The notes under the pieces were generated by a model. That model saw only the letters and a list, made by a program, of their open reading frames with translations. It had not been told where the DNA came from and did not search any database. Below are positions 1 to 16,127 of a stretch of 64,000 nucleotides of DNA, piece by piece (within the stretch, counting starts at the first letter, position 1; every line of letters starts with the position of its first letter). The translations under genes and the position numbers were made by a program. Source of the DNA: a virus (lineage: Duplodnaviria > Caudoviricetes); IMG/VR virus record IMGVR_UViG_2974508059_000001, positions 128,001 to 192,000 of that record; one strand, 5' to 3'.

Positions 1-1245
1 AAACCCGGAACAGGTGTGCAAGGTAATGCGGTTTTGTATTACGACCGTATTGACCTGACATCCATGTTTCCGTTTAACCCCGTGGTGTATTTAAAGTCCA
101 GCATCACCACCGTGAAAGCCGCACTTCCGTACCTCAACGATGCGCTGGGCATCACCTTATCCGAGTCGGACATCGTCGGGCCAGATACAGCCATCACGCC
201 CCCCAATGCTACAGTGCGTTCGCTGACACTGACCGTCACTGCGACGTCTCCGGCGTTTTTGGGTAAGCTTACGTTCAGCTACCAGATTAAGTCCTCGGGC
301 TTTTATCCGAACTCGGGACCGGGACCCAAGAACCTGTTGCAGGGTAACACCGCAATGGGGTATTTCGGGACGGTGGATGCAAAGGACTTGTTCACGCACG
401 CAGAACTGTCCGCGTTGGCCTTCTTAAAAGGAACGAAGCCGGTGTTGTTGGGCGACACCGAGGGTTGGTATAAGTTTTACTACAATGGCAAGATTATCTA
501 CTTGCCGATTACACCCCTCGGCAATACGGTGTCGTGGAACACGTTGTACAGTGAAGGACTGGTGTACGGCACAGACGACAACGGCAAGTACCCGGCAGCA
601 ACGCCTGTCAACCAGAGTCGGATAGTGACCCGTGATTCGGCGAGCGGCGGTCGGTCTTATTTCCGTATTCGCCTGCCGTCGGTAGGGGTTGACCCGATGC
701 CGGCCGGTACGCCGCCTGATAGCAATATCAGCGGCAGTGAGCTGCAGATGTTTAACTATCTGCGTAACGGCACATGGGCATCACTGACCGGTTCGTGGTG
801 GACGCAGTGGATGATTACCCAAAACACGGTTAGCACCGCGGTTGCGAATTCCAAAATTGTGACACTGTCGATCCAAAGCTGGACACAGGTACCGAAAACG
901 GACACCTCTACCGGTTGGTATTGGTTCCCGGTGTTGGAGTTGGTTGATAAGTCCAATACGCTACTGGGTCTGGAGAGTGTGTTTGGAAAAATGGATAGCA
1001 CGCTAACACCAATCGTGTTTGACATTCAGAACAGTCTGCAGGTGCAGCCGTTAGTTCCGGGCATTCCGAAGACCATCGATTTCCTCCCAATCACGTTTGA
1101 TGTCGACCAGTCCTTGGCAGTGAAACCGTTGAACCCGGGCGCACCAAAAACCATTGACTTCCGACCCATTCCGTTCAAGACCGAAATTTACTCGCCAAGC
1201 AAAATTGACCTTGGGTCAACCAGCGGCGAACTTGACGATTTCTAA
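1..1245 (+). CDS. Virion structural protein (type A of ABC cassette), 5'-truncated
   Basis: Frame is open from base 1. Paralogue of 3225..4643 (YDRI/L, GPGP..L..G...GYFG.V, W.KF.Y.GK, PVLE motifs). Confidence 0.7.
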   Translation, partial: KPGTGVQGNAVLYYDRIDLTSMFPFNPVVYLKSSITTVKAALPYLNDALGITLSESDIVGPDTAITPPNATVRSLTLTVTATSPAFLGKLTFSYQIKSSGFYPNSGPGPKNLLQGNTAMGYFGTVDAKDLFTHAELSALAFLKGTKPVLLGDTEGWYKFYYNGKIIYLPITPLGNTVSWNTLYSEGLVYGTDDNGKYPAATPVNQSRIVTRDSASGGRSYFRIRLPSVGVDPMPAGTPPDSNISGSELQMFNYLRNGTWASLTGSWWTQWMITQNTVSTAVANSKIVTLSIQSWTQVPKTDTSTGWYWFPVLELVDKSNTLLGLESVFGKMDSTLTPIVFDIQNSLQVQPLVPGIPKTIDFLPITFDVDQSLAVKPLNPGAPKTIDFRPIPFKTEIYSPSKIDLGSTSGELDDF

Positions 1246-1260
1246 TAGAGGCGTAACCGC

Positions 1261-2262
1261 ATGTCATTTACATTGCGCTGGAGCAATCCCAACACCATCG
1301 CGACGGTGGTTAACATCTATCGCGACACCAAGGACATCTCAGTAGCCGCCCTTCCTGCGCCACTGGCCACACTGAGTAATAATGAAACGTCGTACCGTGA
1401 TAACACGGTCGTTGCAGGACAGACGTATTACTATTTGATGACGGTAACGGCCAACGGTAAAACCGTGGCGACGGCCAGTCAGAAGTACACCGTGGCAGTA
1501 CGTCGGGGCATCGGTCCCAACACGCTTATCACCGGTGATGACCGCTTAGGCTACTACGGGGTGGTGCCACCAGAAGAGCAGTGGTATGGCAATCAATTAC
1601 CCGCAGGGTTTTTGGCCGCGTTTCCCACAGCCTTTGCAGCAACCGATCGTATCCCACTGTTGAAGTTTACCCGCAATGGTAAAATCTTCTACACGCTGGC
1701 CAGCTACTACGCCGGGTGGGCAACGTGGGCAACGCTGTATCAAAACGGCTTGGTGTACGGCACAGGGGATAACGGGCCGGCCAACGGTTACGGTACCCTT
1801 CCGCCAACGTTGCAAGATGCGAAAATCATCTCACAGAACGACACCTACCGGATGCGTCTACCGCGTGGTCTCTCCTCGGCGTCTGCCTCGCCTGTCTTCG
1901 CTTTTAACGACGCGTACAAAGACAAAACGCACGATGAGACTGACCTCATCACGTTCAACGAGTTCAATGACTTGTTGTACCCGCTGGTGATTGATGTGCC
2001 GAACAAGCAGCGCGTGCCGAACGTAATGCAAGCGCAGAGCGGGACACTCGGCTCCCCGGGCAATGCCGCGGGACAAGCGTTTCTCGGCGGGGGGACTATT
2101 TGCATGGAGCACGACAGCGCACAAGACCGTGTGTTGCACCGTGGGCTTTATACCAATGCTGCTGCCACTGTCGTTTCGAATCTGCAAGCAATGCAGCGCA
2201 TCACTTACGTGTCCCCGACACAACAGGGTCGTTATATCCCCCTCTTTGAATTGGTAGAATAA
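1261..2262 (+). CDS. Virion structural protein (type B), FN3/Ig-like N-terminus
   Basis: GAGG RBS. LRW..NIYR..YYY N-terminus plus G.GP..L..G..LGYYG domain. Paralogue of 4663..5652. Confidence 0.7.
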   Translation: MSFTLRWSNPNTIATVVNIYRDTKDISVAALPAPLATLSNNETSYRDNTVVAGQTYYYLMTVTANGKTVATASQKYTVAVRRGIGPNTLITGDDRLGYYGVVPPEEQWYGNQLPAGFLAAFPTAFAATDRIPLLKFTRNGKIFYTLASYYAGWATWATLYQNGLVYGTGDNGPANGYGTLPPTLQDAKIISQNDTYRMRLPRGLSSASASPVFAFNDAYKDKTHDETDLITFNEFNDLLYPLVIDVPNKQRVPNVMQAQSGTLGSPGNAAGQAFLGGGTICMEHDSAQDRVLHRGLYTNAAATVVSNLQAMQRITYVSPTQQGRYIPLFELVE

Positions 2263-2271
2263 GGAGCAGTC

Positions 2272-3213
2272 ATGACCATTCGTTTAAGCTGGCCTTCACA
2301 GGCAAGCAAGGCATTGACGTCCATTGAAATCTACCGCAAGGTGGGGCACAGTGCGACGCTTGACATCAACAACCCAGGCACCCCGACCGCAACGGTTGCA
2401 GGAGACGCGACTCAGTACGTGGAAGACGTGGCGAACCTCACCGAAAAGACCGTTTACACGTATTGGATTGCGGCGGTAAAAGGCACCGAGCGGTTGTTCA
2501 GTGCACCGATTGTTCAAGGTTTCTTCTTGGATACCGGCCCCGGTCCGCAGAAGCTGTTAATGGGCGACTGGTACGCAGGCTACTTTGGGGTTGTCTCAAA
2601 CCAAGAGCTCGCCGCCCGTGAGGACATCATCGGGACTGGGGGCGGATTAACGGCTGCGCAAGCGGCACAGTACAAGTACGCCCAGAACTGGTGGTACAAG
2701 TTCGTCTATAAAGGACGGATTGTGTATTACCCAAATGTTCGAACCGGGTATGCTGCGTACGCAGACACGTATAACGCAGGCATGGCGTACGGCGTTGACG
2801 GTGTGGGACCTATCATTCCTACGGGTGCGAATCCCACTGCTGGGGTTCCACAAACCGCGATGTTCACCAAAAACGGATATAAGTATCGCGTCCGGTTGCC
2901 GTATGGTTTGGATTACAGTGTTAGTGTTGCTTCAACGGACTATGACAACGGCGAGTTTCGTAATACCTTTGCGCGTTTGTTTGCGACCAACACCAGCTAC
3001 ACGGACCCGAAAGACCAAGGGAAGTTTGCCTCACTCGCGCTCCTGTCGAGCGGTACGACAACTACGGAGAATGGGACGACGGCAATGGTGCCCTTGTACA
3101 CCCCGGCAAACGCCTTGTACTGCTACGGCTATAACCCAACGGCCATCACCTACGCGGGCATAAGCGGTCAGACATTCAGCATGTTCTTTGTCCTTGAGTT
3201 GGTCTTACCATAA
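2272..3213 (+). CDS. Virion structural protein (type C)
   Basis: AAGGAG RBS. WPSQ..K.L..IEIYR and DTGPGP..L..G.W.AGYFG motifs. Ends VLELVLP like 5652..6551. Confidence 0.7.
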   Translation: MTIRLSWPSQASKALTSIEIYRKVGHSATLDINNPGTPTATVAGDATQYVEDVANLTEKTVYTYWIAAVKGTERLFSAPIVQGFFLDTGPGPQKLLMGDWYAGYFGVVSNQELAAREDIIGTGGGLTAAQAAQYKYAQNWWYKFVYKGRIVYYPNVRTGYAAYADTYNAGMAYGVDGVGPIIPTGANPTAGVPQTAMFTKNGYKYRVRLPYGLDYSVSVASTDYDNGEFRNTFARLFATNTSYTDPKDQGKFASLALLSSGTTTTENGTTAMVPLYTPANALYCYGYNPTAITYAGISGQTFSMFFVLELVLP

Positions 3214-3224
3214 CGGAGTGAATC

Positions 3225-4643
3225 ATGGGGTTTTATAATGGAACCGCGATGGAGTTACTCTGCCAACAGGTCATCCGTGACAATCCCAGTATGGCGGGGA
3301 GGCTTACTCCTGACGCTGTCACCGTCAATGGGACAGCGGTTGCCCGTAACAACAACGGGCGCAATACGCAGATCACGTTTGTTGGTATCCCGGGGAAAGG
3401 ATTCTTCGGCGAGTTAACCTTGTCTTACGACCGGATTAACTTACTTAACTTCACCGGGAACCTTTATTTCCCGGTGCAGATGTCCGATGGGGTCACCACC
3501 TACACAGAAGCGTTGCCGGACATTAATGACCAGCTCGGACTGAATCTCACCCGGGCGGATTTGGCCGCCCCGGATACGGTCTTGACGGGTGGGACGGTAG
3601 GCTTCACCAGTATCGATATCGCAATCGCTGCCAGTTCTGCGTTGTACAACGGCACGCTGCGGGTCAACTGGCGACGGACACCGGTGGGCAATTACACGGG
3701 CACCGGGCCGGGTCCTACTATGCTACTGGCAGGCGATGAGCAGTCTGGCTACTTTGGTGTTGTTCCTGCAGCAGAGATGTTTACTGCGCAAGAGCTGGTC
3801 AATGCCATTTTAGAAGGCACTGGACTGAGTGCGAACGTGGGCACGGCCTCGTACGACTGGATGAAGTTCTTCTACAAGGGCAAGGTGTTGTTCATTCCAA
3901 AACGCCCGTTGGTCGGTACTTCGTGGGATAACTACTATAAAGCCGGGTCAGCCTACGGTAGCGACGATCCGAATGGGCCGCTGTATCCGGGCAGTGACGG
4001 TGTGGCAGTCCAGCAAAACAAAATCATTGCAAAGCGCAGTGGGGATAAGTCGTACTACTTCCATCACCGACTGCCGCGTGGTGCAGAAAACATCATCGGT
4101 TCGTCAAGCCTGACCGGGGAAGACTACGGTTTGGTGAGAAAGATACTCGGGGGTGAATGGGGTAACGAGCCGGGCACGACCATTGGTCAGGCGGGCGTCT
4201 ACTACATGTCACAGCACATTGGTAATGCGTCACAGCCACAGCTCTTCTCTATCTACACCATGAAGGGTGAGTATTTCAACTCACAAATCTCCAAAACCCA
4301 GACTTACGGATACGTCCCGGTGTTGGAGTACGTGAACCCAGACGACACCGTGTTACCGGTGAGTGATTTCTCAGGCAAGTACAACATCACGGTGACGCCG
4401 CCGGTTGTGACGTACACCCCGCAGGTGAACGAGCTCAGTCCAATCGTACCGCTCGCAACCCGCACAACCCTGCTGACCCCGCCTGCGACCTCAGTAAGCG
4501 CGGATGACGGGTTAATGCCACTCACACCGCTCGCTGCAGCGACGCCGAAGTTGACCCCCGCGACTGTGACCGCCAGTACCCGGGTGCCGAATGCGAAAAC
4601 CTCGCTTAACACTACCAACGGTGTCCTTGGTGACTTTAAATAA
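3225..4643 (+). CDS. Virion structural protein (type A')
   Basis: GGAG RBS. Paralogue of 1..1245, with Pro/Thr-rich C-terminal repeats. Confidence 0.7.
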   Translation: MGFYNGTAMELLCQQVIRDNPSMAGRLTPDAVTVNGTAVARNNNGRNTQITFVGIPGKGFFGELTLSYDRINLLNFTGNLYFPVQMSDGVTTYTEALPDINDQLGLNLTRADLAAPDTVLTGGTVGFTSIDIAIAASSALYNGTLRVNWRRTPVGNYTGTGPGPTMLLAGDEQSGYFGVVPAAEMFTAQELVNAILEGTGLSANVGTASYDWMKFFYKGKVLFIPKRPLVGTSWDNYYKAGSAYGSDDPNGPLYPGSDGVAVQQNKIIAKRSGDKSYYFHHRLPRGAENIIGSSSLTGEDYGLVRKILGGEWGNEPGTTIGQAGVYYMSQHIGNASQPQLFSIYTMKGEYFNSQISKTQTYGYVPVLEYVNPDDTVLPVSDFSGKYNITVTPPVVTYTPQVNELSPIVPLATRTTLLTPPATSVSADDGLMPLTPLAAATPKLTPATVTASTRVPNAKTSLNTTNGVLGDFK

Positions 4644-4662
4644 TGAATAGGAGAGTCGCGCG

Positions 4663-5652
4663 ATGAACTTTACTTTGCGCTGGCGCAATGACAACACCAA
4701 ACCGGTTGTCGTGCGTATTTACCGCAGCACCACGGTCATCGACCCCACCAAGCTACCGGCCGCAATCGCGACCCTCAGTAACGGGGAGACCGAGTGGGTA
4801 GACAACACTGCACTTTACGGTGTTACCTACTACTACTTCACCACTGTCACTAACCCCGCAACCGGCAAAACGGTGAACGGGGTTAACACGACGTACACGA
4901 TTGAGCAACGGCGTGGCGTGGGACCAAACACCCTGCTGTTCGGCAGTGAAACACTGGGCTTCTACGGGGATGTGATTTATGAAGATCAGTTCCCACTGAG
5001 TGCGTTCCAGCAAAAGGTGCAGGATGCCCTCGCCCTTAACAGCAGCACGTTCTCACCATCCTACCGGTTACCGGTGAGTAAGTATATCCGTAACGGTAAG
5101 ATTCTCTACATCCCGGTCTCGCCGCTCACGACACGTTTAACGTGGGCGCAGCTGTATGCCGCCGGCATGGTGTACGGCCGTGATGACAATGGTCCGGCAA
5201 ATGGGCGTGGGGATTTACCTGCAGCTATTCAGGATGCGGGCTGTACGTGGAAAGGGGACAAATACCGGATTCGTTTGATGCGCGGCTTAACGGATGCGCC
5301 AACAGAACCAGCACTGGCGTTCGATGCGAAATACGACGGTGTGTCCCACGACACATCCGATCTTACCGGCTTCAATGAATTCAACGACCTGTTTTACAGT
5401 GTGCAGAACTTGTTCCCGCTGAAACGCCGGTTGGAGGGTGTGCGTTACGCCAGTCCGCTCACAACAACCAACAGCGCGTATGCTGATGGGTATCTGACGA
5501 TGGAGCACGATACCGCATCTAATAAAGCGTTGTCACGTGGCCAAGTCACCTCGCCAATGACGGCAGATTTACTGACCACGATTCGTTATCGTTTACACAC
5601 CTCAACCGTAACTGCTTGGGTGCCGGTTATTGAATTAGTGGAGGACTACTAA
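4663..5652 (+). CDS. Virion structural protein (type B')
   Basis: AGGAG RBS. Paralogue of 1261..2262 (FNEFNDL, MEHD motifs). Confidence 0.7.
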   Translation: MNFTLRWRNDNTKPVVVRIYRSTTVIDPTKLPAAIATLSNGETEWVDNTALYGVTYYYFTTVTNPATGKTVNGVNTTYTIEQRRGVGPNTLLFGSETLGFYGDVIYEDQFPLSAFQQKVQDALALNSSTFSPSYRLPVSKYIRNGKILYIPVSPLTTRLTWAQLYAAGMVYGRDDNGPANGRGDLPAAIQDAGCTWKGDKYRIRLMRGLTDAPTEPALAFDAKYDGVSHDTSDLTGFNEFNDLFYSVQNLFPLKRRLEGVRYASPLTTTNSAYADGYLTMEHDTASNKALSRGQVTSPMTADLLTTIRYRLHTSTVTAWVPVIELVEDY

Positions 5653-6551
5653 TGGGTATTAAATTGCAGTGGCCCTCCCAGAGCGCCAAAGGATTAAGTG
5701 CGATTGAGATTTATCGCACAACCGGTGTGACCCCGTCGCTTAACCGCAACAACTTGCCTGCCCCCTTGGCAACCCTTGCAGCGACAGCAACCGCGTACGA
5801 AGACACCACGGTGGTAGAAAAGACTGTCTACAACTATTGGGTCTGCAACGTGAAGAACGGTGAGCGTATCTTTACGGCCCCAATTCAACGGGGTTATTAT
5901 CTGGATACGGGTCCGGGGCCGACGGAGTTGAAGTACGGGAACTGGGATGCGGGTTACTTTGGCACCGTTGCCGTCAGTGACCTGTTTACCTTTCAGGAAA
6001 TGAACTCCCAACTGGGGATTTCTCTGTTCCAATACACGCCGGATTTCTATCACAAGTTTATCTTTAAAGGGCGCATTCTGTTCTACCCAAACATTCGGGT
6101 GATGGTTCAGACGTGGAGCAATGTCTACTTAGCGGGCTTAGCATGGGGCAGCAATGCGGTCGCCTACATTAAACCCAACGGTCCGGCAGACACCCCACAA
6201 GGTCGCACCGTCAGCAAGAATGGTCGAGCGTATAACGTCCGCTTGCCGTTCAGTGCGGAATACAGTGTGACCGGTGGCCCTACCCTCAGCCAAGATGCAA
6301 TTGCCAATTTGGGAGAGTGGCGAAACACGATGGAGCGGTTATTCCTCGTTCCTGGGACGATGTCGCGCTGGGGCAGTGCGCCGCCAGATTCCCCGAGTAA
6401 CACCTCGAGTCTCCAAACGACGATGTTTGCACAAGCCTACGGCACGGCTAATATCTGGGTGGAACTTGGGGGTGCGCCGCAGGCCATTACCACAAACACC
6501 CAAAACCAAGCGATGTCCACTATGCTGGTATTGGAATTGGTCTTACCGTAA
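5652..6551 (+). CDS. Virion structural protein (type C')
   Basis: TAATG overlap with the upstream gene. Paralogue of 2272..3213. Confidence 0.7.
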   Translation: MGIKLQWPSQSAKGLSAIEIYRTTGVTPSLNRNNLPAPLATLAATATAYEDTTVVEKTVYNYWVCNVKNGERIFTAPIQRGYYLDTGPGPTELKYGNWDAGYFGTVAVSDLFTFQEMNSQLGISLFQYTPDFYHKFIFKGRILFYPNIRVMVQTWSNVYLAGLAWGSNAVAYIKPNGPADTPQGRTVSKNGRAYNVRLPFSAEYSVTGGPTLSQDAIANLGEWRNTMERLFLVPGTMSRWGSAPPDSPSNTSSLQTTMFAQAYGTANIWVELGGAPQAITTNTQNQAMSTMLVLELVLP

Positions 6552-6566
6552 CACAAATAAAAAGAA

Positions 6567-6590
6567 CTACTCTCCCCAAAGGGAGAGTAG
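6567..6590. terminator. Bidirectional intrinsic terminator
   Basis: CTACTCTCCC-caaa-GGGAGAGTAG with A-rich left flank and T-rich right flank, between convergent genes. Confidence 0.8.
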
Positions 6591-6593
6591 CCT

Positions 6594-6695
6594 TTATTTC
6601 TTTTTTCCACCACCGAGCAGACCGCCGACTGCGCCGACGACCGTCCCAACAGCAGAACCAACCCCACCCACGATGGCTGTGATGGGATCAGTCAC
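6594..6695 (-). CDS. Putative 33-aa glycine-zipper membrane peptide
   Basis: GTG start 4 nt after the upstream stop. Sequence MTDPITAIVGGVGSAVGTVVGAVGGLLGGGKKK ends at the terminator. No clear RBS. Confidence 0.35.
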   Translation of the reverse strand: MTDPITAIVGGVGSAVGTVVGAVGGLLGGGKKK

Positions 6696-6699
6696 GGGC

Positions 6700-7209
6700 T
6701 TAGTTGAACCCGTTGAGTTCTCCGTTGGTGCCGGAGAGGTCGGTTTTGGCTTTGCTAATCGTCCACACCACAGCTTCACCGGGGAGAAATTTGGCGTGAC
6801 CGGCGTTGATAGCCACGGTCACGTCCGTTTTGGTTGCGTCTTCTGCGTTAGCATTAGAGGTGATGGTGATGTCAGACAGTGCCAGTGCATCGTCCGCGTG
6901 GTCTTGCTGGAGCATGGTGTTGAAATGCGCGAGCACTTCTTCATCCGTATCCCAGTTGGTCATTGAATCCTCAACCGGCATGTCGCCTTTGGCGTACGCC
7001 AGACGGTTGTAGGTCAGTTCTTTTGACCCAGCGAAGTTGGTGCTTGAACCTTTGGCTGTGATAGTCAGCTTGGTGTTCTTCGCATCTTCTTCAGCGGCTG
7101 CAACAACGGCAGCAAAGTCAACATCAGCCACGGTCAGTGGCGTCGGGAGGCTCGGGTTCGCTGCGTTAAACAGCTCAACCAACTGCTCCTGTGGGGTTTT
7201 AGTAGCCAT
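6700..7209 (-). CDS. Virion protein related to N- and C-termini of type A proteins
   Basis: Start MATKTPQEQ with AAGGGAAG RBS. NP..L....V...NT...G...L.Y.R N-domain; C-terminus KTDLSGTNGELNGFN. Confidence 0.65.
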   Translation of the reverse strand: MATKTPQEQLVELFNAANPSLPTPLTVADVDFAAVVAAAEEDAKNTKLTITAKGSSTNFAGSKELTYNRLAYAKGDMPVEDSMTNWDTDEEVLAHFNTMLQQDHADDALALSDITITSNANAEDATKTDVTVAINAGHAKFLPGEAVVWTISKAKTDLSGTNGELNGFN

Positions 7210-7981: not shown

Positions 7982-8668
7982 CTACGCGACCGATTCCAAG
8001 TTAGCGTTCTCGAGAGCGATGCCTGGGTCGGTTAAGAAGGCACGTTTGATGTTGCGGTACTTCACGTTGGTGGCTTCACCGGATTCTAACGCGTGGCGTT
8101 CCCCGATTGGGACTGCCGGTTCAATGTACGGACGAAAGAACAGGTAGTTACGGGCGTACTCCACGGTAGACTCTTTGAACTCGGTGTAGTGGCAATCGGA
8201 GTTGTCATCGTTGTACGCTGACTGGCCGAAGAGGTGCACGGCATCGTAGAACGACGCTGCAATCGCCTCGCCCACACCGGTGGCTTGCATGGTGCGCAAG
8301 AACATCAAGTCCGCAAAGTCTTTATCCACGGCCCCACTTAACCGTCCTGCTGGGGTGTCCGGGTAGGTGGCTACCGACGGGCACTTCTGGTACAGGAGGT
8401 CGTGCAGACATGCCGCCACCGCCCACGGGCCATTGGGTTTCAACACCGACTGAAGCATATCCGGGATACTCGCCATATCGGTGACAAACCCACGGGGTAC
8501 TGTGATGTAGAACAGGTCATCAGGCAGCACACCCGTGAGCGACACCATACGGTCTAGCCCCGGGGCATTACGGTAGATTGTGCGTAGCGTAAACGGGTAG
8601 TGGAAATCCTGCGTCAGGATAAACCATTTCCCCTCCAACACTTTATAAGTGAAATCCATCGGGCTCAT
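7982..8668 (-). CDS. DUF1353 family protein
   Basis: VPRGFVTDMASIP ... AACLHDLLY ... ADLMFL motifs. Confidence 0.85.
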   Translation of the reverse strand: MSPMDFTYKVLEGKWFILTQDFHYPFTLRTIYRNAPGLDRMVSLTGVLPDDLFYITVPRGFVTDMASIPDMLQSVLKPNGPWAVAACLHDLLYQKCPSVATYPDTPAGRLSGAVDKDFADLMFLRTMQATGVGEAIAASFYDAVHLFGQSAYNDDNSDCHYTEFKESTVEYARNYLFFRPYIEPAVPIGERHALESGEATNVKYRNIKRAFLTDPGIALENANLESVA

Positions 8669-9445: not shown

Positions 9446-9463
9446 GGTGCCCCGAAGGGCACC
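9446..9463 (-). terminator. Intrinsic terminator closing the radical SAM operon
   Basis: GGTGCCC-ttcg-GGGCACC on the minus strand, followed by CTTTCTTCTTTTTATTT. Confidence 0.85.
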
Positions 9464-9467
9464 ACTG

Positions 9468-10109
9468 TTATTCTACCGACGGATTAAACTCCGCCGCGTC
9501 GAGTGAGGCGTAATCGCCCTGCTCCGCAAATGCACGGATACGGGTTTTGTACGCGGTCAACTGAACGTGCAGCTGTGCGTTACGTGCGACAATCAGAGAG
9601 TACAGCATCTCTGTGTCTTTCGCTTCCCACTCTTCCAGCGCTTGGTTATCGGCAGTCACCCAATACTCCGGCACGGTGTTCGTTTGCACGAAGCCGGCCA
9701 GGGTGGTCAGGGTCTCACCTGCGGTCTGGAACATGTGGTCTTTGTACGCAATGTCAGCCGTGACCGCTTCACCGTACGCTGCATTAGTGGCCTGAAGTTT
9801 CTTGGCCAGCAGAGTATAGCAATACGCTTTGGTCGACTGCAACTCTTTGAGGTAATCCTTCACCTGAATCCCCAACACGTCTTTGATAAACGTTTTGGTT
9901 TGGCGTAGGGTGTAGTTGGCTTCGAACTGGGTCTGCCCCTGCTCTTGCAACTGACGCAGTGCATCTTTCTCACTGAGTCCCTCTAAGAGTGCGTAGTGTA
10001 AACGCTTGGCCAGCGTGACATCGCCGTTGGGGTCAAAGAACAACCCGTTGCGGTCAATCTGGCCATCGCCGTTTTCAAACCGCGCTTTTATCTCGTCAGC
10101 ACTAAGCAT
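9468..10109 (-). CDS. DUF4376-like protein (tail-fibre-associated family)
   Basis: C-terminal FQT...LT.LA...YWVTADN...A.D...L...I......LH......K..I pattern. Confidence 0.6.
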   Translation of the reverse strand: MLSADEIKARFENGDGQIDRNGLFFDPNGDVTLAKRLHYALLEGLSEKDALRQLQEQGQTQFEANYTLRQTKTFIKDVLGIQVKDYLKELQSTKAYCYTLLAKKLQATNAAYGEAVTADIAYKDHMFQTAGETLTTLAGFVQTNTVPEYWVTADNQALEEWEAKDTEMLYSLIVARNAQLHVQLTAYKTRIRAFAEQGDYASLDAAEFNPSVE

Positions 10110-10636
10110 TCTTTCTCTCCCACGAATCCAACTTTGGTCAACATGTCATAGGACATGATTTCAAAGTCGATACGAAGATCCAGACGGTACTGCAAGTTCG
10201 GCAACGGCTGGTCATTTTCTTGGAACGCCTGCATGAACATCATGTCATCGAAGTAATGACACGCGCTCTCGGGGTTGCGCACCATCCAGACCGGGACATC
10301 CGGGAAGGACAGACACAGTGCCACCAGAGAATCACCGCCACGATCGATAGTGCCGGTACGCAGGATGTTTACCTTTGAAGCAGGGGCCGCCAGAATACGC
10401 GCTTCGAAACCCGGGTTACGCTTTTCGATTTCTGCTAACGAGTCGTGGCCGTTCTCCACGCACTGAATCGGCAGGACAACGTTAAGAGCAAAACGGTTAA
10501 TCAAACGCAGCCAGTGATCGTTGAAATCATCGGCAGGCACGATAGCGTGAATGTTAAACAGCTTATAATGCTGTAAGAACGCTTCGATTTTGCGACTATC
10601 GTACTTCGTAAAATTCTGGAGAAGCAGGCTTTTCAT
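10088..10636 (-). CDS. Hypothetical protein in radical SAM operon
   Basis: Overlaps both neighbours; no recognised motif. Confidence 0.65.
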   Translation of the reverse strand: MKSLLLQNFTKYDSRKIEAFLQHYKLFNIHAIVPADDFNDHWLRLINRFALNVVLPIQCVENGHDSLAEIEKRNPGFEARILAAPASKVNILRTGTIDRGGDSLVALCLSFPDVPVWMVRNPESACHYFDDMMFMQAFQENDQPLPNLQYRLDLRIDFEIMSYDMLTKVGFVGEKECLVLTR

Positions 10637-11993
10637 TCTTGAATTGTTCCTTGCGGTCAGTTTGTTCCACAGCCATGGTCATCTCACGGATGGCGGTGAC
10701 GTGTAAAGGCTGTTCTGCAGCTTCGCGGGTGAGTTTCTCTTCAACAGCAAAGTTGCGCTTCTGTTGGCACTGGTAACAGTTACAAACAGACTTGTCGTAC
10801 TGCGATTCGTACGACCCGAAACGTTGTTTCCACCACTGCGCCACTAAGAGCTTCGCGGTAGTCCAACCACACTGGCGACGTTCGCCGTGATACTCTTTAC
10901 GAGCGTCTTCTTCACCGTCGCCATTTTCATACGCCGCCGCCACGCACGAGGCACACAGGTGCTTCGCTGGGCAACCGATACACTGGTCAGGATACGACTT
11001 CCACTGTTCCTGAACTTCGGCCAGCAGTTTACCGCCGTCGGTGTTCACGATGGTTTGACCTTCGAGCTTACCGATGGCCTGACGGGTGGTTACCGTGGAC
11101 ATGAAGCGGTTACAACCGAAGATGTTACGGTCGAAGCCGAGACAAGTCATGTACACCGTGGTGCCGCAGTGCGGACGCAGACGTTGTGGGTCGTAGCGTA
11201 CAGAGTCATCATGGATGAGCTTCTCACGCCAGTCCGGGTTCCACAGTTGGTCAACATCCAGACCGTCCGGCAGCACGTGACCGATTTCAGAGTTCTGGTC
11301 TAAGTGCAGACCTTTCTCAATGAAATACTCCGCCACTTCGATGAACTGGTTGGCAATCTCGAGTGCCATCTGGCGCGGTAACACGTCTTCGAAAACGACG
11401 TTACCGTACAGACGACCGCCCCCGGTCACATCAATCAGCGACTTCATCCCAGCACCGTACTGCATCAGCGTTTCTTTCGTGAAGGTGGCTTTCACCCCAA
11501 TCTCACGAACACCGATTTCTTGCAGAAGCTTATAGCCGGCGACCGCTGCTTGGTAAGACCCTTGACGGGACGTGGTGAAGATACGGTACTTATCGTGGGT
11601 CTCGGGCAGACCATCGATAGAGACACCGATCGACAGGTAATCTTTCCAGCGATTCAGAATCTCCAGCGCCAGCGGTTTGTCAAACAACGTGCCGTTGGTG
11701 GAGATAGAGAACACGTAAGGCAGATTGTGCTTTTTGCACAGCTCTTCTGCGGTTTCGAAGGCCGCTTTCAGCAGCTTCGGCTGCATGAAGGGTTCGCCAC
11801 CGATGATATCGATGATGATACCGTCGATACCTTGGTTCTTCGAGAAGAAGCGATGTTTATCGCGATTAAAGCAGGCGTGAATAAAATCAACGACATCAGC
11901 GACTTTGTTATTACGCGGATACTTACGCTCGTAGCAATACTCACAGTCGAGGTTGCACGATAGGTTGGTGACTATCTGGTAGGTTGCATCCAT
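10596..11993 (-). CDS. Radical SAM/SPASM-domain peptide maturase
   Basis: CNLDCEYC (CxxxCxxC), IGGEP, STNGTL and SIDG motifs. C-terminal Cys clusters HCG..TC..GC, CIGC.....CASC, QC and CNCYQC. Confidence 0.92.
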   Translation of the reverse strand: MDATYQIVTNLSCNLDCEYCYERKYPRNNKVADVVDFIHACFNRDKHRFFSKNQGIDGIIIDIIGGEPFMQPKLLKAAFETAEELCKKHNLPYVFSISTNGTLFDKPLALEILNRWKDYLSIGVSIDGLPETHDKYRIFTTSRQGSYQAAVAGYKLLQEIGVREIGVKATFTKETLMQYGAGMKSLIDVTGGGRLYGNVVFEDVLPRQMALEIANQFIEVAEYFIEKGLHLDQNSEIGHVLPDGLDVDQLWNPDWREKLIHDDSVRYDPQRLRPHCGTTVYMTCLGFDRNIFGCNRFMSTVTTRQAIGKLEGQTIVNTDGGKLLAEVQEQWKSYPDQCIGCPAKHLCASCVAAAYENGDGEEDARKEYHGERRQCGWTTAKLLVAQWWKQRFGSYESQYDKSVCNCYQCQQKRNFAVEEKLTREAAEQPLHVTAIREMTMAVEQTDRKEQFKNEKPASPEFYEVR

Positions 11994-12005
11994 CCCTATC
12001 TCCCC

Positions 12006-12890
12006 TTATTTTTTAATTGGATTAAGCCAGTTCATGATGTAACGGTAGCCGTGCTCACCGATGGCCAGTGCAATCTTGTTGCAGCCACGGTCCACGACCA
12101 TCTCAACGTTCTCAGGAACTTGCAGGTCGCCATTCGGTTGACTGACGATAATTTCACTACAGGCATTACACGCATCTTCTTCGAAGAACTTCTCGAGCTT
12201 GATGATGGTGTCACGCTTGTTAATGCGGTTGAGCTTACGCATGTTGTCTTGCAGACGCTCAAAGCCGTACACGAAGTTTAACACGTGGTCAGGCGACAGC
12301 ACTTTCTTCATCTGGTTATCGAACAGGTAGTTCATGCCGAGGAAACCAAGATGGTGAATGGCGTCTTGCATTTTCATCATGCCTTCGTGCCAGCGCATGT
12401 CCCCGATCTTCTCACGGGTTAACACTGACCAGAGGATAACGTTGTCCAGCTGGGCGATGACTTCAAACGCTTCGGTATCACCGGAACGAGCAAAGTCCAT
12501 TAAACCACGGGCATCATCTTCGTAACCGTCGATGGAGACCACAACACGATGGAAGGTTTTCAAAAACTCGACTTGCTCTAAACGTAACTTACGTCCGTTT
12601 GTGAAAAGATAGTGCACGGCAGAAGGACGTTCTACGCGCATCATCTCGACCGACTCGACGAGTTTACGGTAAGACAGTAACGGCTCACCCCCCGTCCAGA
12701 TGATCTCTTCCACACCGGGATTCTTTTTCAGTAACTCCATCATTGCCTCTTCATGGGTTTTACGAGACACGTCCCCTTTGACCATGTGAATCTCACCCGC
12801 ACAAAACGAACAATTGAGGTTACACTTCGACGTCAATGCTACGTTAATGGTCTTTGCAGGTGAGTAAACATCTTTACTTAACGTTCTCAT
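12006..12890 (-). CDS. Radical SAM protein
   Basis: CNLNCSFC, WTGGEPLL, FTNG and VSIDG motifs; C-terminal CNAC and GC. Confidence 0.9.
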   Translation of the reverse strand: MRTLSKDVYSPAKTINVALTSKCNLNCSFCAGEIHMVKGDVSRKTHEEAMMELLKKNPGVEEIIWTGGEPLLSYRKLVESVEMMRVERPSAVHYLFTNGRKLRLEQVEFLKTFHRVVVSIDGYEDDARGLMDFARSGDTEAFEVIAQLDNVILWSVLTREKIGDMRWHEGMMKMQDAIHHLGFLGMNYLFDNQMKKVLSPDHVLNFVYGFERLQDNMRKLNRINKRDTIIKLEKFFEEDACNACSEIIVSQPNGDLQVPENVEMVVDRGCNKIALAIGEHGYRYIMNWLNPIKK

Positions 12891-13800
12891 CCGTCATTCC
12901 GTACAGGCGACGTTGGAAAGAGAACAGTGGGTCGGTGTCTCGTACATCTTCACCCGCCTTTAACAGACGTGGTGAGCGATACGCATCGTACAGTGCGTTA
13001 AGAACGGATTGACGCTCACCCATGCGGATAAGGTCGTCCAGTTCAACCGGGGACGAAATAAACGGTTCCAGCGCAGCCTGTTGTTCGTCGGTGAACTCTT
13101 TCAGCTGTGACTGGAGCAGGAAGCGAATCAGTTTGCGATCATCCGCCGTGGAGTTCGGGACAGCGCCAAACTCAGTCTGACAGAGATAGGCCATCCACGG
13201 TTTACGGATGCGGAGTGTTTGCGCATGCGGGTCTGCGATGTAGACCCACTCTTGCTTCTCTGCATCCCATGCAAACTTATAACTAAACGCGAGTAAGTCT
13301 GCCAAGCAGTCGATATTCGCGGCTTCAAGGCCAGAGAACGGGTGATACATTTCACGGTCTTTCTCCACGCTTCCAGTGCCGGCTTCCACCAGTTTGAATA
13401 AGTGGGACCAGCTTCCGCAGTAATCGCTGCTGTAGCTACGCACGCACACCGGACGCATGCCGAGTTCTTTAAAGGACTCGAACATCAGTTCCAGTGGTGC
13501 ACTATAGTTCAGTACCGAATCTGTGAAAAAATACTTGTCGTTGACAAGCTTCCCGGTAAAACCAGAACCGCCTAAGGCGAACTGAATGGATTTCACGTTC
13601 AGCTTGCCCACCGTGGTCGCATCAATCACGGTGTACTCTTTTTTCGTAAAGTTGCGACCGCGAAGCTTAGGCCATTCAAACTGGTCCATGGCAATCAGCC
13701 GCAGCTCGTCGTTGATGTGTGCGTTAACACTGTCCGGTGACGAGATGTGAATTGGGTAATTCATGCTCGTGCGGTACGCAAGATGATCGTTACTCTTCAT
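12874..13800 (-). CDS. Hypothetical protein in radical SAM operon
   Basis: 308-aa ORF coupled between the precursors and the radical SAM gene. Confidence 0.7.
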   Translation of the reverse strand: MKSNDHLAYRTSMNYPIHISSPDSVNAHINDELRLIAMDQFEWPKLRGRNFTKKEYTVIDATTVGKLNVKSIQFALGGSGFTGKLVNDKYFFTDSVLNYSAPLELMFESFKELGMRPVCVRSYSSDYCGSWSHLFKLVEAGTGSVEKDREMYHPFSGLEAANIDCLADLLAFSYKFAWDAEKQEWVYIADPHAQTLRIRKPWMAYLCQTEFGAVPNSTADDRKLIRFLLQSQLKEFTDEQQAALEPFISSPVELDDLIRMGERQSVLNALYDAYRSPRLLKAGEDVRDTDPLFSFQRRLYGMTDENVK

Positions 13801-13812
13801 TAGGTTCCCCTG

Positions 13813-14022
13813 TTAACTCGGGAAGGAGACTGATTTCGCACCGCCTGAGCTACTCCAGCTACAGGTTCCGCCGCAGTTGTACGCGCCAGCACGAATCCCA
13901 CCCAAGTTGTTGGTGTTGTTACACGTTCCACGGTTGGCGATATAATCAACCGCCTGTCCCGTGGTAATATAGCGTTCGATGCTCGCCACGCGGTTACCGA
14001 TGTCTTTCAAGCTTACTGCCAT
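13813..14022 (-). CDS. Short precursor-like paralogue (3 Cys)
   Basis: AGGAG RBS. MAVSLK leader and CGGTCSWS motif. Confidence 0.8.
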   Translation of the reverse strand: MAVSLKDIGNRVASIERYITTGQAVDYIANRGTCNNTNNLGGIRAGAYNCGGTCSWSSSGGAKSVSFPS

Positions 14023-14031
14023 AGCCTACTC

Positions 14032-14460
14032 CTACGGTCCAGAACAGCCTGCTCCACAACTCCCGCCACAGCCACTACCGCAACTTCCCGAGCACCCGCC
14101 AGAACATTTGCCTGAACAGTTACCCGAGCATGTGCCAGAACAACCGCCGGAGCAGCCGCCGCCACAGTTACCGCCACAGCTGCCACTACAACCACCGGTG
14201 CAGCTAGATGAACAGTTGCCCGAACAGGATGACGAACACCCAGACGAGCAGTTACCCGTACAGCCACCAGAACAGCCGTTACCGCACGTCCAGCTACAAG
14301 AGCCGTTACAGTGCAGTGCCGCTGGGGTGAAACCGTTGAGTAAATCAGCATTATTAGTAGTGCGTCCACCGATGTAGTTTTGCACGCCTGCTTCAGTTTT
14401 TAGTGCGGTGTTCTCAATATTGACAACACGGTCACGCACCGATTTTAATGAAATCGCCAT
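14032..14460 (-). CDS. CXXX-repeat precursor peptide (23 Cys)
   Basis: AGGAG RBS. 50-aa leader followed by 23 perfect CXXX units. Confidence 0.88.
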   Translation of the reverse strand: MAISLKSVRDRVVNIENTALKTEAGVQNYIGGRTTNNADLLNGFTPAALHCNGSCSWTCGNGCSGGCTGNCSSGCSSSCSGNCSSSCTGGCSGSCGGNCGGGCSGGCSGTCSGNCSGKCSGGCSGSCGSGCGGSCGAGCSGP

Positions 14461-14468
14461 TTCCGCTC

Positions 14469-14858
14469 CTAAGGGCTGCTACAACCAGCACTGCAGTTAC
14501 TGCTACAGGTGCCAGAGCAACCGCTAGAGCAGCTGCTGCCACATGAACCTGAACAGCCGCTTGAACAGCCACCAGAACACGAGGATGAGCAACCTCCCCC
14601 GCAACCACCAGAACACGAGCCCGAACAGTTACCTGTACACACGCCGCTACAGCTTCCTGAGCAGCTCGAGCAACCGTGACTACAACCTGACGAACACGTC
14701 CAACTGCACGACCCGTTACAACGGGCCCACGTATCAGGTTGGCCTGCCAATAGATTCGCATTGTGAACTTTGCTGTTCACCTGCCCCTCTACGGACGCGC
14801 CGGTTGCTGCTTGGACTCGGTCAAGACGGGCACTTAGTTCTTTAAGTGATATCGCCAT
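14469..14858 (-). CDS. CXXX-repeat precursor peptide (21 Cys)
   Basis: AGGGAAGG RBS. 46-aa leader followed by 21 Cys units (one CXX). Confidence 0.88.
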   Translation of the reverse strand: MAISLKELSARLDRVQAATGASVEGQVNSKVHNANLLAGQPDTWARCNGSCSWTCSSGCSHGCSSCSGSCSGVCTGNCSGSCSGGCGGGCSSSCSGGCSSGCSGSCGSSCSSGCSGTCSSNCSAGCSSP

Positions 14859-14921
14859 TACCTTCCCTTTTTAATAAGACACGGGCACTCGCCATATAGA
14901 CGAGGCCCGTGTGTAATTATA

Positions 14922-16127
14922 TTAACGTGAACCGGCATCAGCCTGTACATCGTCACGTGTGGTCAAGTTGGCGTTGACGTGCACGTTTGCCTGAACCACG
15001 CCGCCATACTGCTTGTGCAGGTACTGGGTGTGTGGATCGGCGGCAGACAGGTGGTTAGCGAGCGTCTGGTTAACACTGGCGATGTTGCCCTCGGTCGTGG
15101 TGACACGACGGGTCAGTGCGGTCAGGTCAACACGCAGCTGGTCAATCTGCTGCTGTGCGTCACCGGCTCCGGACTTGAGGTCATCAATCTGGTCTTGCAA
15201 CCCAACGGCCGTTTGCTTCAACTCATTCACGGTTTTCTGTAACGTCAATACCAGTGAATTGAGGTTGGCCACAATCAACGTCATCTTCTGGTAGTTTTGG
15301 TCTACCGTGTTCAGTTGGTCGTTGAAGGTGGTCAGCGAACTGACGATGGCATCAATGCGCCCACCCAGTGCCGTATCAGCAGCCTTAAGGTCGCCAATCT
15401 GGACGAGGGTTGCATCGATAGCTGCCTGCACGCCGGCAATCAACGCACGGATTTCGGTTGCGGTCAAACCATCAATATCGTGGATATCAAGGTTGTGCAC
15501 GTTACCCGTGGCATTGATGTGGGCATTCAGCGCGTCCAAGAAGTTATTCTTGATGTCGCCGATGATGTCTTTGATTTTCTCAAGCTGAACGGCATCGCCT
15601 GAACCAATCGCATCCAGAATACCCGAGAGCAGGGTAATGACGTATTCAAAACCAAAGATATCGCCAACGTCTTTAAACGCCGGGGCACCCGGTAGCGTAT
15701 CCGGGAAATCGATTAAGTCGGCAAAGTTCACCTTCTTATTATCAATGCCCAGAATCGCAATCGCATTTTCAATCGCAGTCACGTTCGCAGACATTGGCCC
15801 ACCGACAACCTGAGCGGTCACGATGATGTCTGTTGGAATGCTGCTGTTGGTCACTACAACTGCCATCACGACTTCTTTGTTGCCCGAGAGCTTCATGTAG
15901 GCCGGATGAGCGAAAATCAGTTCGTAGTCGGTACCACGTTTATACGGCGTGGTGGGCGAGTTCGTGGCACGCAGTTTAAAACTGTCTGCGTAAAACGGAC
16001 CTGCCGGAAAAGCAAAAGACCGGTTAACTTTACCGGAACCCAAGACCACGGGGATACTTACCGCGTTCGATGTCAGAGTTCCTTTAAGGTCAAGCGGATA
16101 CTGGAAAATAATATCACTCATCTCCAA
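14922..16127 (-). CDS. Tail-fibre-like virion protein with coiled coil
   Basis: N-terminal GPFY...GTDY domain shared with the three large upstream genes, heptad region, and HLSAADPHTQYL fibre motif. Confidence 0.7.
   Translation of the reverse strand: MEMSDIIFQYPLDLKGTLTSNAVSIPVVLGSGKVNRSFAFPAGPFYADSFKLRATNSPTTPYKRGTDYELIFAHPAYMKLSGNKEVVMAVVVTNSSIPTDIIVTAQVVGGPMSANVTAIENAIAILGIDNKKVNFADLIDFPDTLPGAPAFKDVGDIFGFEYVITLLSGILDAIGSGDAVQLEKIKDIIGDIKNNFLDALNAHINATGNVHNLDIHDIDGLTATEIRALIAGVQAAIDATLVQIGDLKAADTALGGRIDAIVSSLTTFNDQLNTVDQNYQKMTLIVANLNSLVLTLQKTVNELKQTAVGLQDQIDDLKSGAGDAQQQIDQLRVDLTALTRRVTTTEGNIASVNQTLANHLSAADPHTQYLHKQYGGVVQANVHVNANLTTRDDVQADAGSR

Follow-up and report, generated by a model that had tools for sequence, protein, structure and literature searches.

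The region examined here lies in a 64,000-nucleotide stretch of DNA (positions 128,001 to 192,000 of the IMG/VR record IMGVR_UViG_2974508059_000001, referred to below as the window) from a 245-kb SPN3US-like jumbo phage. Eight minus-strand open reading frames run from position 14858 to 9468, with gaps of 8, 9, 12, -17, 12, -41 and -22 nt between them, and each is preceded by a purine-rich stretch just upstream. Together with the flanking elements, the features of the locus are as follows.

14922 to 16127, minus strand: short tail-fibre-like protein, orthologue of SPN3US gp167, proposed carrier of the small proteins.
14879 to 14912, minus strand: conserved hairpin with an invariant TATG (14896-14893) at the loop, candidate gp167 terminator plus phiKZ-type late promoter.
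14469 to 14858, minus strand: pepA, 129 aa, with an N-terminal helix, a junction motif and a 21-Cys Gly/Ser ladder.
14032 to 14460, minus strand: pepB, 142 aa, with the same N-terminal module and a 23-Cys ladder.
13813 to 14022, minus strand: pepC, 69 aa, with the same module and only the first two ladder Cys.
12874 to 13800, minus strand: 308-aa accessory protein of no known family or fold, candidate substrate-recognition or scaffold subunit.
12006 to 12890, minus strand: short radical SAM protein, 294 aa.
10596 to 11993, minus strand: radical SAM/SPASM maturase, 465 aa, without an N-terminal RRE.
10088 to 10636, minus strand: 182-aa protein of unknown function.
9468 to 10109, minus strand: DUF4376-like protein, probable tail-fibre assembly chaperone.
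9446 to 9463, minus strand: intrinsic terminator-like hairpin with a UUCG loop and a U-rich tail.

The observation made in the preliminary description, namely a tightly coupled operon of these eight genes ending at a UUCG hairpin, was confirmed. In PepA the 21 Cys are spaced by four residues except for one 3-residue step, in PepB all 23 Cys are spaced by four, and PepC has 3 Cys in total, while some of its orthologues continue into variable C-terminal domains, giving total lengths of 139-226 aa. The eight genes are conserved in 58 sequenced relatives, and the small Cys genes are real genes under purifying selection: in comparisons with three relatives most differences fall on third codon positions (72 of 100 for pepA and 75 of 103 for pepB against pEa_SNUABM_11), and no Cys is lost or gained while Cys codons change synonymously.

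Three points of that description required correction. Firstly, the last protein, which had been called DUF4376-like, gives no Pfam hit itself; the assignment rests on its 33%-identical SPN3US orthologue, which passes PF14301 (36.9 bits, cut-off 25), and on an Atlas feature match (0.91), while fold searches with a model of the 213-aa protein gave only generic helical-hairpin hits (best Z 7.6, a designed protein), so that membership of the window protein itself is neither confirmed nor ruled out by these data. Secondly, the adjacency to the endolysin is not conserved, as in SPN3US the lysozyme orthologue lies about 3 kb away on the other strand, and a coupling to the endolysin was rejected for this reason. 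Thirdly, the unit probably starts at the hairpin at 14879-14912, whose TATG is invariant in 12 phages and matches the phiKZ late promoter consensus (PMC4666361). Single-sequence folding of this hairpin gave z-scores of -3.1 to -4.6 in the 7 sequences tested, although RNAalifold found no consensus on the gapped alignment, and its function has not been shown. A sigma-70 promoter scan gave no excess over chance. RNA libraries of an SPN3US-like phage, examined only as contigs, cover the operon and in two studies stop 6-8 nt after the DUF4376 gene, with depth falling 6- to 9-fold, while a third contig bridges the place, which is a weak hint rather than proof of transcription.

Both enzymes pass the Pfam Radical_SAM cut-off (PF04055). 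The short one has three invariant C-terminal Cys (241, 244, 270), inferred to be twitch-like, is present in 58 records, is fused to the SPASM enzyme in one open frame in locus L038 (L numbers denote the loci compared) and is duplicated between pepA and pepB in L008 and L015. The 465-aa enzyme carries the CxxxCxxC motif (Cys 13/17/20) and seven invariant C-terminal Cys of SPASM pattern (276, 294, 338, 341, 347, 350, 375), although no Pfam SPASM hit was reported. Its best family is TIGR04115, the CXXX-repeat maturase, at 113.8 bits, well below the cut-off of 350, followed by the PapB family at 107.7 (cut-off 340) and SCIFF maturases; other members of its clade score 144-189 and members of the sister clade 385-502 against TIGR04115. 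Its closest solved structure is 5WGG (E 1e-39, aligned from its residue 103), with anaerobic sulfatase maturase as the second structural hit. The radical SAM domain starts at residue 4-13, leaving no N-terminal RRE, and PF05402 is absent from the 99%-complete genome, although a divergent stand-alone recogniser is not excluded. PepA and PepB pass TIGR04114, the CXXX-repeat target (23.7 and 24.4 bits, cut-off 20), whereas PepC gives no hit.

In a quick tree (a more thorough search was not completed) the SPASM enzyme falls in a phage-only clade with SH-aLRT 100, sister to loci that pass TIGR04115. All ten representatives of this clade carry a Cys ladder, a second radical SAM and a homologue of the 308-aa protein, which was found in none of the other loci examined and thus marks the clade. 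It had been stated in advance that a routine occurrence of homologous radical SAM genes without Cys-repeat genes would speak against a dedicated pairing; when this was examined, a ladder was found beside the enzyme in 10 of 10 clade representatives and 18 of 19 sister-clade representatives, against 3 of 27 other radical SAMs, and the pairing was therefore not refuted. Long multi-repeat hits in the representative search (P0118, P0119, P0122, P0124, P0127, P0129, P0132, P0134, P0135) are summed weak repeats without ladders and were rejected. A model of the 308-aa protein (pLDDT 84) matched nothing in PDB or Atlas (best Z 4.3), and a profile of the shared N-terminal region of the small proteins gave only non-significant coiled-coil hits among solved structures. 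The 182-aa protein was found only in the jumbo-phage loci where the ladders are free-standing.

In unrelated phages the ladder is the C-terminus of the gene in the tail-fibre slot in contigs of three tail types, often with the same junction motif. In the P2-like L035 the protein has a PF12571 collar N-terminus (E 2e-40) and lies after tail I and before the sheath, with L022 and L039 as further P2-like cases; in the lambda-like L030, L036 and L040 it follows the GpJ-like tip gene; in the T7-like L025 it follows nozzle and T7-tail genes; and L038 also has tail-fibre PHROG hits at E 1e-31. The motif before the first Cys is shared between the free peptides and the fusions (profile E 2e-13 for L025 and 2.5e-8 for L039), and the same loci carry the 308-aa homologue and the short radical SAM. 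It has to be noted that these fusions come from uncultured contigs, and that in the phage studied here the ladders are not fused to any fibre. Here the gene just upstream encodes a protein with a baseplate-anchor N-terminus shared with the upstream fibre paralogues, a long coiled coil and no evident tip domain; it is 64% identical to SPN3US gp167, a tail protein in virion mass spectrometry (PMC10052503), belongs to PHROG 2163 and is full-length in 60 records, versus 58 for the cassette. Its role as a carrier is an inference resting on adjacency and co-distribution; trimer formation and binding of the small proteins to this fibre were not examined.

These findings bear on the earlier suggestion that a lytic phage encodes its own multi-crosslinking peptide-maturation pathway, whose product may be built into the virion or released at lysis; this interpretation is supported only in part. 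The dedicated radical SAM/CXXX-repeat pairing, the absence of an exporter (PF00664 is absent from the genome, and no operon protein has a transporter or peptidase hit) and the guess of a virion component are supported, whereas a free RiPP-like product or release at lysis is not. A true RiPP, with leader-core precursors matured and released at lysis or acting inside the infected cell as antibacterial, anti-defence or host-takeover peptides, and with the fibre fusions as a separate use of the domain, would fit the anatomy of three short paralogues with a shared N-terminus and variable core, the TIGR04114 matches and the small ladders and exporters of bacterial sister loci, and a lytic phage needs no exporter. 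However, in every non-jumbo locus of the clade examined the ladder ends a longer protein in the tail module, none is a free peptide, and the "leader" motif is internal, looking rather like a fibre segment. In addition, a DUF4376-like gene is in the operon, no peptidase is recognisable there, and the cassette co-occurs with one fibre type, so that this alternative is regarded as unlikely.

The preferred model, to which a probability of about 0.6 is assigned, is that the operon is a tail-fibre tip module with its own maturation enzymes. In this view, three small paralogous proteins are made late in infection, oligomerise through their N-terminal helix and junction motif, probably as a trimer, and dock on a tail fibre, most likely the short gp167-type fibre, helped by the DUF4376-like chaperone. 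The SPASM enzyme, with the short radical SAM and the 308-aa protein standing in for the missing RRE, would abstract hydrogen atoms and link the ladder cysteines to nearby carbons, probably as thioethers; as the ladder has almost no Asp or Glu, the acceptors would have to be Ser, Thr, Gly, Asn or another Cys. The result would be a thin, redox-independent, protease-resistant rod of about 80-90 residues at the fibre end, used in adsorption or sensing. Of this, the analysis demonstrates that the small genes are real, and the absence of enzymes and chaperone from the particle is shown for three SPN3US orthologues, whereas the late promoter, the docking and the role of the chaperone are inferred, and the chemistry is deduced from the enzyme family alone. 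No experiment shows modification or virion location, neither of which was measured here, and the enzyme is far below every curated maturase cut-off, which leaves its reaction open. The model is further supported by the variable C-terminal domains of the pepC orthologues, as found in receptor-binding tips, and by the DUF4376 family being described as fibre chaperones (PMC10579305, PMC7882524).

Proteomic evidence from SPN3US also counts for the model. The orthologues gp161 (the DUF4376 protein), gp162 (the 182-aa protein, detected at trace level) and gp163 (the SPASM enzyme) are expressed but classed as non-virion, gp165 (the 308-aa protein) is absent from the virion tables, and gp167-170 are tail proteins. 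The small proteins are likewise absent from these tables, which speaks against the model only weakly, because they are missing from the GenBank annotation, gp166 is a wrong-frame ORF and the published tables list annotated ORFs only; they were thus probably never tested, although the search database itself was not seen. The three correct ORFs lie at L001 6094-6486, at 6497-6901 and, with a GTG start, right after these, and the N-terminal halves of their products give several Cys-free tryptic peptides of 7-13 residues. The same absence would also suit a different explanation, in which the ladder proteins are transient assembly factors, that is, an enzyme-stiffened trimerisation clamp or chaperone removed before the virion is finished. 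The extreme C-terminus is where cleavable intramolecular chaperones sit, and the genes appear to be co-transcribed with a chaperone gene. This is considered the least likely of the alternatives, since the ladder proteins have no protease motif or S74 domain, the variable domains of the pepC orthologues suggest an exposed tip, and twenty or more conserved Cys and two enzymes are costly for a discarded piece.

A further alternative, unlikely but the strongest of the three, accepts the ladder as a fibre part and contradicts only the thioether chemistry: the cysteines could bind metal or Fe-S clusters between three chains, or the enzymes could epimerise residues, desulfurise Cys or oxidise it as sulfatase maturases do. 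Acidic acceptors are nearly absent (5 Asp/Glu among 481 CXXXC units, none in the window ladders), so that PapB-type chemistry does not fit (PMC12373016); position i+4 is itself Cys; there are two different enzymes, of which the short one has no close characterised relative; an anaerobic sulfatase maturase is among the structural hits; and metal-bound fibre tips occur in T4. On the other hand, the best families of the SPASM enzyme are the TIGR04115, PapB and SCIFF maturases, its closest structure, 5WGG, is a Cys-thioether enzyme, and metal binding alone would not need two SAM-cleaving enzymes with intact CxxxCxxC motifs.

Radical SAM peptide maturases are known for bacterial natural products and a few enzyme subunits, not for building virus particles. 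Literature searches on radical SAM, SPASM, RiPP and thioether chemistry in phages and tail fibres, on SPN3US and on the TIGR families found no description of this system. If the model is correct, phages use RiPP-type chemistry to make structural rods, and many "phage RiPP clusters" and part of the uncharacterised TIGR04115 family are really tail-morphogenesis genes. A bolder version, which is tentative and judged slightly less likely than not, is that phages of all three tail types encode a mobile two-enzyme radical-SAM cassette stitching 10-35 thioether links into the distal end of a tail fibre, which would represent an undescribed enzymatic step in virion morphogenesis, a new thioether-ladder structural motif and processive Cys cross-linking onto non-acidic residues. 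The model is directly testable, as SPN3US has amber genetics and existing virion and tailless-head spectra; it bears on host recognition by phages used against Salmonella and Erwinia (SPN3US uses flagella, PMC11428620), and offers enzymes that may cyclise many cysteines without acidic acceptors or an RRE.

Among known systems, SPN3US (Seoulvirus, Chimalliviridae) gp161-gp167 are orthologous, in the same order and 33-64% identical, but have been published only as "putative radical SAM superfamily protein 1 and 2" and hypothetical proteins. The NCBIfam CXXX-repeat system (TIGR04115 maturase, TIGR04114 target repeat, TIGR04119 CXXX_matur), which to our knowledge is itself a genomic prediction without biochemistry, shares the Cys every 3-4 residues and the adjacent maturase. 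It differs in that a TIGR04119 domain, present in the bacterial locus L108, was found neither in the operon proteins nor elsewhere in the phage genome, and that three bacterial TIGR04115 loci have an ABC exporter, whereas the phage operon adds a second short radical SAM, the 308-aa protein and a DUF4376-like gene, and has targets that are fibre ends or fibre-like. The ranthipeptide maturases CteB (SCIFF; PDB 5WGG) and PapB (freyrasin) likewise combine a radical SAM with a seven-Cys SPASM domain and act on multi-Cys substrates, but PapB needs an acidic acceptor or a C-terminal carboxylate (PMC12373016), which the ladder lacks, while the phage enzyme lacks an N-terminal RRE, its substrates have 20 or more Cys each, and there are no secretion genes. 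QhpD (TIGR03906; 66 bits, far below the cut-off of 453) installs several thioethers into the gamma subunit of quinohemoprotein amine dehydrogenase, a small subunit of a larger protein assembly and not a diffusible peptide, but it is a bacterial enzyme using Asp/Glu acceptors for three links. Finally, the tail fibre plus Tfa/DUF4376 chaperone modules of phage Mu, the CJIE1 H-fibre and Alteromonas V22 and A5, and separate-chain tip adhesins such as T2/S16 gp38, resemble the locus in the position after fibre genes, the DUF4376-like gene and a Gly-rich small protein as a candidate distal tip, although no known fibre module includes modifying enzymes or a Cys ladder.

The window is part of a 244,950-base virus record that is 99% complete. 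The 465-aa radical SAM protein it encodes is 93% identical to that of Erwinia phage pEa_SNUABM_11 and about 64% identical to SPN3US gp163, and 58 phage records cover at least 80% of it, all of them SPN3US-like jumbo phages of Erwinia, Salmonella, Cronobacter, Escherichia and Proteus (the host of the present phage is not known). The same count, 58, was found for the 308-aa protein, the short radical SAM and the pepB N-terminus.

The eight ORFs, their Cys counts, their tight spacing and the terminator are all as the preliminary description gave them, and its observation therefore holds. The three small ORFs are conserved in order in the relatives examined and evolve as proteins, in that third-position changes dominate and no ladder Cys is lost against three relatives. 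In GenBank they are often missed: in SPN3US (locus L001, 6094-7150; JN641803.1) pepA and pepC have no CDS and gp166 is a wrong-frame ORF over pepB; all three are unannotated, and CR5_157 is likewise on the opposite strand over pepB. Upstream of pepA lies a hairpin that is kept in all relatives folded (z -3.1 to -4.6), occupying the same gap in loci L001-L013, L033 and L034, its stems differing in sequence between phages:

14879-14912, minus strand: hairpin with an invariant TATG at the loop, possibly both the gp167 terminator and a structured late promoter

TATG is the phiKZ late-promoter consensus (PMC4666361), so a late transcript starting here is plausible, although this has not been shown.

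The 465-aa protein has CxxxCxxC at 13-20 and seven invariant C-terminal Cys of SPASM type. Its best family is TIGR04115 (113.8 bits against a cut-off of 350), followed by PapB. The closest solved structure is 5WGG, to which it aligns from residue 103 of that structure; 5WGG is CteB, the first part of which is an RRE, so the phage enzyme lacks the RRE. No PqqD domain exists in the genome. The 294-aa enzyme has CxxxCxxC and three further invariant Cys, and no close characterised relative. The two enzymes are read in one open frame in phage locus L038, and a second copy of the short one is inserted between pepA and pepB in two other loci (L008, 4542-5453, and L015, 4543-5454), both of which point to a shared pathway.

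To examine whether enzyme and ladder travel together, 80 viral and 80 genomic loci were fetched with the enzyme profile and reduced to 56 representatives, from which a tree was built by a quick method. The enzyme of the window falls in a 10-member, phage-only clade (SH-aLRT 100), sister to the loci that pass TIGR04115. Routine occurrence of homologous radical SAM genes without Cys-repeat genes had been named at the outset as grounds for rejecting the preliminary interpretation; instead, a run of six or more Cys spaced 3-4 apart lies within the locus for 10 of 10 clade members and 18 of 19 sister members, as compared with 3 of 27 other radical SAMs. All clade representatives also have a short radical SAM and the 308-aa homologue, the latter occurring in no other locus in the collection. 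It has to be noted that related sequences share ancestry and these are not independent events, but the contrast with the controls is clear. In L048 and L058 the ladders, of 31-35 Cys, appear only when TAG is read as Gln, so these gut phages probably use an alternative code. A jumbo-phage locus, L023 (3492-11239), has four radical SAM genes (two short, two SPASM-type) around ladders of 31 and 33 Cys, and in L105-L107 (Candidatus Termititenax / Margulisiibacteriota) proteins of about 660 aa with 112-122 Cys, whose prophage context was not checked, lie beside sister-clade maturases.

In other phages the ladder was found in the tail module. In L035, a P2-like tail operon, the gene between tail protein I and the cassette has a Pfam tail-collar fibre N-terminus (E 2e-40) and ends in a Cys ladder, with the sheath following. 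L022 and L039 have the ladder gene after baseplate J, with tail-fibre PHROG hits, whereas in L030, L036 and L040 it follows a lambda GpJ-like tip gene, and in L025 it follows the portal, tube, nozzle and T7-tail genes of a podophage. In L038 the ladder ends a 437-aa tail fibre (E 1e-31). Sister-clade TIGR04115-like phage loci (L042, 6134-6802; L071, 3849-4919) also lie beside baseplate genes (DUF2612, Baseplate J). In L022, L025, L028, L030, L036, L039 and L040, the 20 residues before the first Cys and the first ladder unit match the free peptides, so the so-called leader is, at least in part, an internal fibre segment. In the jumbo phages (window, L021, L023, L031) the module is split into separate small genes, and only these loci have the 182-aa protein. 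Some pepC orthologues continue into unrelated domains of 70-150 residues, and L023 has a protein with a similar N-terminal helix (E 0.001) and a tail-fibre-like end but no ladder. In L031, another large phage, an Acb2/Tad1-like hairpin gene (anti-defence family; 6848-7069) lies just upstream of the ladder genes, with a Cpn60 gene downstream.

The SPN3US orthologue of the last gene of the operon passes DUF4376, a family described as tail-fibre chaperones (PMC10579305, PMC7882524). The gene upstream of pepA is the orthologue of tail protein gp167 (PMC10052503) and shares its anchor domain with gp168-170, the baseplate/fibre paralogues (PMC5694885, PMC5105663). It is full-length in 60 records against 58 for the cassette, while about 118 other records, including phiKZ, share only its N-terminal part and lack the enzymes. 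Two further features of the window were noted:

7982-8668, minus strand: match to PHROG 1158, "tail assembly chaperone"
16-6551, plus strand: tandem array of paralogous virion proteins (PHROG 1062/3589 for those scanned), probably SPN3US paralogue family B

DUF1353 genes also flank the cassette in L023, L026 and L035. SPN3US gp161-163 were seen at 3-4 spectra and classed as non-virion, so they are made but not structural (PMC10052503). The genome has no ABC exporter and no TIGR04119, whereas the bacterial sister loci L108, L112 and L121 pair small ladders with an exporter.

Taken together, what is shown comprises the genes, their conservation, the pairing of enzyme and ladder, the fusions, and the non-virion status of three orthologues. 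Beyond that the model rests on inference, namely that the small proteins oligomerise and dock on the gp167-type fibre, that the enzymes act on the ladder, which is likely (about 0.85), that the product is located in the virion (about 0.75), and that the chemistry is that of thioether formation (about 0.6). Ladder positions are Ser/Thr, then Gly/Ser, then Gly/Ser/Thr/Asn, with almost no Asp or Glu, so PapB-type acceptors are excluded (PMC12373016) and the linkage would be to small residues or another Cys; metal binding and epimerisation remain as rivals to this chemistry, and a released peptide and a transient chaperone as rivals to the fibre model. The preliminary interpretation, in which a lytic phage matures its own multiply cross-linked peptide, perhaps for incorporation into the virion or release at lysis, is partly supported.

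No paper describing this system was found in the library searched, which did not extend to subscription papers, and there is a substantial chance that it represents an undescribed step in virion assembly. It works like the CXXX-repeat / ranthipeptide systems, but differs from them in that it is not a member of TIGR04115 by score and lacks RRE, TIGR04119 and export.
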